Part shown: positions 5,762 to 6,617 of the stretch, in pieces
Position numbering within the stretch: the stretch's first letter is position 1
How the letters are laid out: each line of letters starts with the position of its first letter
Source: Enterobacteria phage phiC600P9
Direction: 5' to 3' (one strand)
DNA length: 64,000 nucleotides
Sequence record: MZ681930.1
Notes under the pieces: generated by a model
The model's input: the letters and a program-made list of their open reading frames with translations, nothing else
Told to the model about the DNA's origin: nothing
Database searches by the model: none
Program-made: the position numbers and the translations under genes

Positions 5762-5789
5762 TTTATTCTCCTCTGTAGTTGATAGGGTA

Positions 5790-5819
5790 ATAGTATCACT
5801 ACTAAAACCCCGTGTAAAC
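5790..5819 (-). promoter_or_regulatory. T4 early-type sigma70 promoter (minus strand), cassette copy A
   Basis: Minus strand: -35 GTTTAC (+ coords 5814-5819), 18-nt spacer, -10 TACTAT (5790-5795) with TG extension; A/T-rich UP-like region upstream. Confidence 0.5.
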
Positions 5820-5831
5820 AACTTTGTGAAA

Positions 5832-6089
5832 TTATTTTAAATCTTCTAATCGTTTCTTCATCTTAGAACCGTTCTTAGCGATTTCGCCTGCATCAGAGCA
5901 TAATGCTAAAAGCGCTTTAACTTTAGTTTGGTCTCCTTTAAAAGATGAAGGATCGACTGCAGCAGCAAGTTCTTTAATACGAGAGAAAAGACGCTCAGCT
6001 TCAGCTAAAGCCATTCCAAGCTTTACTTCCATACCATGAGAAGATTCAGTAATAGTAGTTTTTGTAGCAAACTCTTTGAAAGTTTTCAT
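5832..6089 (-). CDS. internal protein (ipI-locus type) with capsid targeting sequence, 85 aa
   Basis: N-terminus MKTFKEFATKTTITE-SSHG matches the T4 internal-protein CTS pattern with an I-x-E gp21 cleavage motif; position immediately before 57B corresponds to the T4 ipI locus. Confidence 0.6.
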   Translation of the reverse strand: MKTFKEFATKTTITESSHGMEVKLGMALAEAERLFSRIKELAAAVDPSSFKGDQTKVKALLALCSDAGEIAKNGSKMKKRLEDLK

Positions 6090-6119
6090 TTTATTTTCCT
6101 AATTAATTTTGATGAGGTA

Positions 6120-6149
6120 ATAGTATCACTACCTCATCAGTATGTAAAC
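6120..6149 (-). promoter_or_regulatory. T4 early-type sigma70 promoter (minus strand), cassette copy B
   Basis: Minus strand: -35 GTTTAC (6144-6149), 18-nt spacer, -10 TACTAT (6120-6125); overlaps inverted repeat GATGAGGTA...TACCTCATC (6111-6138). Confidence 0.5.
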
Positions 6150-6161
6150 AACTTTATGAAA

Positions 6162-6617
6162 TTATTTTAAATCATCTGCCCAATCGAGTTTAAGAGGCTC
6201 TTTGTATTCACGGTCAAGTACAACCGGAATTTGTACATCACCGCTAAATGATAAGGGCCCAACATTATAAGACAATGTTATATGCGGTGTGTAATCATCA
6301 AAATCATGTGTAGCACCTAGTGCCCGCGCATACATGTGTCGACAGCGCAGATATTCAGAATCTAGCACAAGTACAAGAGTCGATCCATCTTGCGTTTTCC
6401 ATACTTCTAAATGTCCAGAAGAAGCTACTTCAAAACTTCCACTCGATGGAACATATGGAACATTTACTCTCGAATAACATATGGTCGAATGAATTTTTTC
6501 TCTAGGAACTGGATTAGGAACACGTAAAGAGCGCTGAAGTTCTTCCAGCGCATCAAGTGTTAATTCTGAAAACTTAGCTGCTACATAAAGACCCGTTGAA
6601 AAGTCTTTAAATTCCAT
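6162..6617 (-). CDS. 57B: gp57B-like protein with 2H phosphoesterase (LigT-like) motifs
   Basis: 151 aa at the T4 57B position; two H-x-T/S-x motifs (KIHSTICY and TPHITLSY) typical of the 2H phosphoesterase superfamily. Confidence 0.7.

Follow-up and report, generated by a model that had tools for sequence, protein, structure and literature searches.

In the 64,000-nucleotide (nt) stretch of Enterobacteria phage phiC600P9 DNA analysed here (record MZ681930.1, hereafter the window), three intergenic cassettes on the minus strand, A, B and C, are best explained as standard T4-type early promoters, two of which flank a swappable internal head protein (IP) gene (B and A) while the third drives gene 30.8 (C), and which recombine as direct repeats (probability of about 0.9). 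The evidence comes from the sequence and layout of the cassettes, from their T4 orthologues and from the places where gene content changes between related phages. The cassettes, their hairpins and the genes next to them are as follows.

6109-6177, minus strand: cassette B, predicted early promoter of ip5 (-35 TTTACA at 6143-6148, TG, -10 TACTAT at 6120-6125, predicted start near A6113)
6110-6139, minus strand: inverted repeat of cassette B (TGATGAGGTA at 6110-6119 pairs with TACCTCATCA at 6130-6139, bracketing the -10)
5779-5847, minus strand: cassette A, predicted early promoter of trna.4 (-35 TTTACA at 5813-5818, -10 TACTAT at 5790-5795, predicted start near A5783)
63593-63661, minus strand: cassette C, predicted early promoter of 30.8 (-35 TTTACA at 63627-63632, -10 TAGTAT at 63604-63609, predicted start near A63597)
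63652-63683, minus strand: intrinsic-terminator-like hairpin of gene 30.9 (AAGGACTCC-TTCG-GGAGTCCTT, then a T run; 9-bp stem in a 111-nt fold)
6162-6617, minus strand: 57B, anti-CBASS Acb1 (PF23474 Acb1, E = 3e-60), conserved, upstream of cassette B
5832-6089, minus strand: internal head protein gene of ip5/ipV type, 85 aa (phrog_3499 'internal head protein', E = 1e-49)
5576-5761, minus strand: trna.4 homologue, a 61-aa predicted membrane protein (phrog_1692), conserved, downstream of cassette A
63244-63576, minus strand: gene 30.8, 110 aa (PF06019, E = 6e-60), variable, between cassette C and the cassette before 30.7

In the proposed mechanism, the unmodified host sigma-70 RNA polymerase would read the cassettes immediately after infection. 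Neighbouring cassettes would be closely spaced direct repeats, made of the long common consensus, the last codons of the upstream gene and the -10/leader segment, and the highly active homologous recombination of T-even phages would cross over inside them, within one genome or between co-infecting phages. Such a crossover would delete, insert or exchange the gene between two cassettes, and the incoming gene would always find itself behind a working promoter and Shine-Dalgarno (SD) sequence.

Layout of the cassettes and the promoter family

A repeat search of the window recovers the cassettes as a 69-nt minus-strand family, D3 (5779-5847, 6109-6177 with 83% identity and 63593-63661 with 62%), and the SD/ATG part as family D9 (5756-5776, 6084-6104 and 63571-63591), which confirms the three-copy minus-strand module described in a first-pass annotation of the same letters. 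On the coding strand, each copy consists of an A/T-rich stretch, GTTTACA, a 17-nt spacer ending in GTGA, TACTAT or TAGTAT, a leader of ~20 nt, an SD sequence and ATG. The core sites are TTTACA-N17-TACTAT in A and B and TTTACA-N17-TAGTAT in C, with TG two bases ahead of the -10; the GTTTAC with an 18-nt spacer of the first-pass annotation is the same site in the other register. All three copies contain GTGATA(C/G)TAT, and the upstream A/T-rich UP region is GATTTAAAATAATTTCA in A and B and TTTTTATTTTCCAAAGATTG in C. The distance from the end of the -10 to the ATG is 27-30 nt for trna.4 (5761), ip5 (6089) and 30.8 (63576), and each of these small genes has the SD sequence reported for it (for instance GAGGAG at 5768-5773 in cassette A and AGGA at 6097-6100 before ip5). 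The 15-mer GTAAACAACTTTGTG, quoted earlier as present in all copies, occurs three times at two or fewer mismatches (0.19 expected; 0 of 100 shuffles reach three), copy B reading GTAAACAACTTTATG with one mismatch, and the 17-mer GGTAATAGTATCACTAC, noted as a motif of A and B, has two exact occurrences, at 5786 and 6116.

The cassettes have direct counterparts in T4, where ipI is flanked by near-identical versions of B and A (in the 57B-ipI region and before trna.4) and where the 30.8 cassette (orthologue at 130309) differs from C by a single base. In the time-resolved T4 transcriptome, the ipI, trna.4, 30.7 and 30.8 RNAs are classed as early and those of 57B and 57A as middle (PMC9697503 supplement). 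A separate early start between 57B and ipI predicts a middle-to-early step in RNA class, as seen in T4. The late-promoter sequence TATAAATA was not found in the stretch from 57B to the IP gene; its closest coding-strand occurrence is at 7215-7222, inside gene 1, and late expression of the IP gene would therefore depend on transcripts that cross cassette B. The T4 records NC_000866 and AF158101 have no promoter features at the IP locus, one T4 misc_feature away from it bearing the promoter name 'Pe133295', and the RefSeq record of phage Lutter has promoters annotated at both flanks of its internal head protein gene, probably by prediction.

T4 early promoters have been described as UP/-35/TGn/-10 promoters with additional conserved regions (Hinton 2010). 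The family was rebuilt here from the T4 early-region sequence by searching its coding strand for matches to TTTACN-N16-18-TAnnAT that contain TG and are followed by an SD-ATG, which yields 23-25 cassettes that are alike well beyond the two hexamers, with the consensus aAaaat.TTtcA.aAA.ttGTTTACat...tGTGgTAcTATa...ctAtcaa. The strongly conserved positions are matched in 21 of 21 cases by A, 21 of 21 by B and 20 of 21 by C, and the segments CACAAAGTTGTTTAC, GTGATACTAT, CTATCAACTAC and GGAGAATAAAATG also occur at many unrelated T4 early genes, such as before e.8, motA and denB. A, B and C all have the -35, spacer, -10, TGn, UP region, family consensus and T4 orthology of T4-type early promoters, and the early-promoter identity proposed in the first-pass annotation is supported by this consensus match and by the orthology to the T4 regions before ipI, trna.4 and 30.8. 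Over 80 nt, pairwise identity within the family has a mean of 50% and a maximum of 88%; the values for A-C (58%) and B-C (61%) are ordinary for the family, and the A-B value of 72.5% is above family level because both contain GATTTAAAATAATTTCA, which encodes the DLK-stop end of 57B and ip5. These two genes share the terminal codons GAT TTA AAA TAA (at 6162-6177 and 5832-5847), so that the final three codons and stop of 57B fall within the repeat unit of cassette B, and the recombination that put ip5 in place may also have fixed its C-terminus.

Judged by their letters, A, B and C are a local sample of a genome-wide promoter family and not a special three-copy element. The PST/T4 consensus for the promoters of promoter-early stem-loops (PeSLs) is TTTACW-N17-TAYWAT (Comeau 2014). 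Of the promoter patterns scanned, only the T4-specific one is enriched (19 sites vs 8.9 expected), with exact matches at 1672, 5790, 6120 and 54666. The earlier count of copies was too low, and the following cassettes are added to it.

63213-63240, minus strand: cassette before 30.7 (TTTACT-N16-TATTAT with TG; 8-bp inverted repeat GGTACAGG/CCTGTACC around the -10)
1672-1700, minus strand: cassette before e.7 (TTTACA-N17-TATTAT; 10-bp inverted repeat ATAGGCTCAT/ATGAGCCTAT around the -10)
1281-1308: cassette before e.6, from the promoter-pattern scan
54666-54694: cassette before the DUF5498 gene, from the promoter-pattern scan
1990-2035, minus strand: shortened cassette before e.8 (-10 TACTAT at 2009-2014 and leader CTATCAACTAC kept; ~31 nt, comprising the UP element and the -35, gone vs T4)

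The last of these had been taken for a partial fourth copy at about 1990-2015; its -10 is indeed there, and it is a shortened version of a promoter that is complete in T4 before e.8, where T4 reads AAACTTTTTAAAAATTTTTTCACAAAACTGTTTACATCCTTGTTCTTCCATGGTACTAT and the window AAACTTCCCTGTTCTTCCATGGTACTAT. The e.8 region spans ~292 nt in nearly all of the several hundred relatives among the matches listed, against 261 nt in the query, so that the full promoter is kept there. The loss looks like a private deletion in phiC600P9, which should silence or weaken early transcription of e.8. Half-degraded elements near indels have been described before (Comeau 2014).

Changes of gene content at the cassettes

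When the window is aligned with T4, identity is unbroken through 57B, cassette B, the SD and the ATG, becomes weaker in the leader codons, is lost in the IP body (ip5 vs ipI) and is regained exactly at ATTTCACAAAGTTGTTTACA of cassette A. The same pattern is seen against relative L038, which has a 102-aa IP. The phages G2540-3 and L008 have an extra 301-304 bp, comprising ip6 and one cassette, with the junction within the common GTGATACTATTACCCTATCAA, and in L039, which has ip6 only, the junction lies in the common upstream block GATTTAAAATAATTTCACAAAGTTGTTTACA. Close relatives thus hold ip5, ip6, ip5+ip6, ipI or a 102-aa IP at this locus, and 0-5 open reading frames (ORFs) with an MKT(Y/F)(Q/K)EF leader occur in the interval downstream of 57B in 36 IMG/VR loci found through 57B. 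The cassettes have two homology blocks, one on the TTTCACAAAGTTGTTTACA side and one on the GTGATACTATTACC side, and the junction sites indicate that ip5+ip6 can therefore yield the arrangement of the window by a right-half crossover or that of L039 by a left-half crossover. Cassette A resembles a recombinant of the second and third cassettes of the ip5+ip6 phages, and the predicted A x B mini-circle would measure 330 bp.

A similar picture is found at the second locus, where the T2-type phage SV76 lacks precisely 30.8, with the junction in GGAGAATAAAA, common to the 30.8 and 30.7 leaders, and in phage teqdroes the two cassettes enclose a divergent allele of 30.8. All junctions examined at the IP locus and at 30.8 fall inside cassettes, which points to recombination as their cause. 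The first-pass annotation had staked its proposal on such a comparison, and cassette boundaries do coincide with gain, loss or replacement breakpoints in the relatives. Its reading is supported in each element, subject to qualifications; its description of the flanked genes as hypervariable holds for the IP gene and 30.8, and not for trna.4, which is conserved.

Hybrid cassettes were also seen in two IMG/VR loci (L024:3675-3750 and L031:2970-3040), with a 5' half of one type and a 3' half of another, so that the stem is broken, and one of them carries a duplicated TACTATTACCTCATCAA. They look like footprints of crossover or slippage at the -10.

Several points weigh against promoters that recombine as direct repeats. 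The case for promoter activity in phiC600P9 is made by consensus matches and T4 RNA classes only, and such timing classes are indirect. Many relatives have tandem IP genes with no cassettes between them, among them the distant L015-L023, L027 and L043 with no promoter between, and IP diversity thus does not depend on cassettes. Homologies of only 2-10 bp, wherever they lie in the genome, are enough for T4 to recombine, and the cassettes may therefore be merely convenient homology, not selected for shuffling; the segB homologue (3912-4520), 1.3 kb off, could also drive exchange of the IP region. These points favour an account in which the cassettes are only promoters, their similarity reflecting selection for one strong promoter and leader design and not for mobile regulatory cassettes, and in which breakpoints fall there as the sole nearby repeats on which general or micro-homology recombination or SegB homing acts. 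That the A-C and B-C identities lie within the family range agrees with it. The homology between neighbours, however, exceeds promoter needs, extending into the DLK-stop codons of 57B and ip5, and each junction examined sits in a cassette; this account is a serious contender, yet rated somewhat below even odds. The one point on which it departs from promoters that recombine as direct repeats is whether shuffling is itself selected or a by-product, a distinction beyond the reach of sequence data. Chance similarity in A/T-rich intergenic DNA could draw on a generic sigma-70 consensus scan of 1-10000, which gave no excess (34 sites vs 37.8 expected) and is uninformative in such DNA. It is practically out of the question given the 15-mer count, the two copies that agree at 83% over 69 nt and the conserved placement and sequence of the cassettes across T4 and hundreds of related phages; the repeat search, the 15-mer count and the alignments of relatives refute it.

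Inverted repeats around the -10

The inverted repeat reported for copy B was recovered at 6110-6119/6130-6139 and folds as RNA with -17.4 kcal/mol (z = -4.3). Its T4 orthologue has a 10-bp stem that 0 of 200 shuffles reach. Cassettes A (-13.0 kcal/mol, z = -1.7) and C (z = -1.8) are less distinctive; the cassettes before 30.7 (-19.9 kcal/mol, z = -6.6) and e.7 (-18.2 kcal/mol, z = -5.9) also fold. Across the T4 family, 11 of 25 cassettes have a mismatch-free stem, 6 bp or longer, whose arms lie in the spacer and immediately 3' of the -10, and in 9 of the 25, both T4 IP loci included, at most 4% of shuffles reach the observed stem. The arm sequences are unlike between promoters (GATGAGGTA, ATAGGCTCAT, GGTACAGG, AATTGTGA), and among orthologues of the trna.4 cassette the 3' arm varies at two positions (TA, AG, AA), with the partner bases changing to match, in two different registers. 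Such compensating changes argue for selection on pairing and not on a protein recognition sequence. The predicted start is ~7 nt downstream of the -10, which restricts the complete hairpin to read-through RNA or single-stranded DNA, and the repeat probably forms an RNA hairpin in transcripts from upstream promoters.

In cassette C (63580-63634 of the window), TCCTTTGT in the spacer is the complement of ACAAAGGA at the SD. Read-through transcripts, unlike those initiated locally, could in this way mask the SD. Complementarity between spacer and SD is also seen in T4 (NC_000866) at 62796 (regB), 65412 (denV), 53942 and 130309 (30.8), for example as TCTCCTGTAG/CTACAGGAGA; at most 3.5% of shuffles reach the stems observed in these promoters.

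Two further functions of the hairpin were weighed. The stem-loops might be terminators as in canonical PeSLs, making each cassette a terminator-promoter insulator and each small gene its own transcription unit; the strong hairpin with a T run (63652-63683) ahead of cassette C is in line with this, and the PeSL stem-loops of RB49 and phi1 are effective terminators (Arbiol 2010). In A and B, however, the hairpin overlaps the spacer, the -10 and the +1, is followed by AAAAUUAAUU (B) or CAACUACAG (A) with no U tract, and is weak in copy A, which makes an insulator improbable. As intrinsic terminators the A and B hairpins were rejected, with no U tract and no call in a terminator scan of 1-10000. 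The repeat might instead be an operator for a phage or host protein that shuts the promoters off after the early period, as repressor operators typically lie across the -10 in this way and about 9 of 25 T4 early promoters have a significant bracketing repeat; but the arms are wholly different between promoters and change in compensating pairs within one orthologous cassette, in two registers, and an operator is very improbable.

A more speculative proposal, with about one chance in five of holding, is that the inverted repeats at many T-even early promoters serve as an RNA-level switch of promoter choice; their arms, unlike in sequence from promoter to promoter, retain both place and complementarity. 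The 5' arm lies in the spacer and is thus confined to RNA that reads through from upstream middle or late promoters. In such RNA it would pair with the beginning of the leader at cassette B, 30.7, e.7, ipIII and cd.3, and with the SD at cassette C/30.8 and, in T4, also at regB, denV and the promoter at 53942. Were the switch to exist, the stability or translation of an mRNA would depend on whether it began at the local promoter or farther upstream. Control by a hairpin plus an internal promoter is known for the T4 late genes e, soc and 49, and the switch would extend control of this type to early promoters.

Genomic neighbourhood and known systems

The window belongs to Tequatrovirus and, over the stretches compared (5000-7500 by megablast and two others), is 100% identical to the phiC600P9 record MT630408.1, the best match. 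In megablast, 5000-7500 matched 828 phage records, most of them T4/T2/T6-like with 95-99% identity. By the annotation of MT630408.1 and T4, the minus-strand order is 1-57A-57B-IP-trna.4-tRNAs-segB, as in T4, with trna.3, trna.2, the tRNA cluster and segB following trna.4 on the minus strand. The ip5 product has the capsid-targeting leader MKTFKEF...ITE, and the record of phage GiZh names an ORF of this type ipV/Ip5. Two further annotated genes complete the order.

6617-6859, minus strand: 57A
6859-7584, minus strand: gene 1

The segB homologue, which encodes a GIY-YIG homing endonuclease, lies on the minus strand within the tRNA cluster; its position and the tRNA content are unlike those of T4. 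SegB homing could contribute to exchange at the neighbouring IP region. Between e.8 and the tRNA genes, the window has two protein ORFs (2176-2649 and 3035-3385) in place of the small RNAs rnaC and rnaD of T4, and 2176-3385 is another variable segment, bounded by repeated terminator hairpins. G+C-rich hairpin repeats are found between genes in two families, one with GGGGCCGAAGCCCC (636-657, 41768-41789 and 62782-62803) and one with AGCCCCAACCTTTCGGCTGGGGCT followed by a T run (2136-2171 and 2691-2726); both probably consist of intrinsic terminators that serve at more than one site. Two tandem Alt-like ADP-ribosyltransferase genes on the minus strand (54695-56752 and 56756-58807; 685 and 683 aa, both PF03496) are 42% identical to each other and are the source of repeat families D1, D2, D5 and D16.

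Ip1, Ip2 and Ip3 are injected anti-restriction proteins that each block a distinct GmrSD-type enzyme, and the IP gene held between the cassettes therefore helps to set host range. Rapid swapping of IP genes by T-even phages, with expression kept, is accounted for by the cassette structure. The arrangement and the idea of shuffling are already known and 30 years old (Arbiol 2010; Comeau 2014, citing Repoila 1994); the window is one more clean example, which adds the exact junctions for ip5, ip6 and ip5+ip6 and the apparently private loss of the -35 half of the e.8 promoter, the point of some value being the role of the covarying inverted repeat over the -10.

Among known systems, A, B and C belong both to the T4 early-promoter family and to the Repoila-type elements of the T-even IP locus, and only C has the full PeSL layout. 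Liebig and Ruger in 1989 and Miller et al. in 2003 are said to have compiled the T4 early promoters. The UP element, -35 GTTTAC(A/T), 17-nt spacer, TGn, -10 TAnTAT, leader and SD of such promoters are all common to A-C, and no difference was found.

The comparison with PeSLs, which are known from RB49/phi1, PST/T4 and nt-1/KVP40 (Arbiol 2010; Comeau 2014), is more divided. Like PeSLs, A-C are composites of an A/T-rich region, an early promoter, SD and ATG; A and B match the PST/T4 consensus exactly, and C has one mismatch (TAGTAT). They also lie in plastic regions next to indels, where PeSLs are found, and the shortened e.8 cassette corresponds to the half-degraded copies. In contrast to the canonical PeSL, whose stem-loop is upstream, A and B have their only stem across the -10 of the promoter, rich in A/T and lacking a U tract, and the end of the preceding ORF lies upstream of the -35. 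Only in C does the 30.9 hairpin, ~20 nt upstream of the -35, give the terminator-then-promoter order; phage SV76 has an annotated terminator at the corresponding position. The term PeSL-like used in the first-pass annotation is thus apt for the promoter, the location at indels and the layout of C, and fails for the A and B stem-loops, the T-even IP-locus elements having been called 'analogs, not homologs' of PeSLs (Arbiol 2010). Nearest to the cassettes are these IP-locus elements themselves.

The elements of the IP locus have been traced to Repoila 1994 (Arbiol 2010; Comeau 2014). With them the window shares the locus (57B to the tRNA region), the element size (69 nt here), the promoter with an inverted repeat over the -10, the cargo (an ORF with an MKT(Y/F)(Q/K)EF leader) and the proposed role in IP shuffling. 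Two 69-nt copies (83%) flank the ORF with the IP leader at 5832-6089, the inverted repeat overlaps the promoter (10-bp stem in B, weaker in A), and related phages differ in how many IP ORFs they have here, in which ones and in what order. In their original description, Repoila, Tetart, Bouet and Krisch reportedly found in 1994 that IP ORFs are bordered on each side by ~70-bp sequences that hold a T4 early promoter overlapped by an inverted repeat. Compared with these elements, the window has no substantive difference; phiC600P9 has one IP gene, of ip5 type, and its downstream cassette is recombinant-like.

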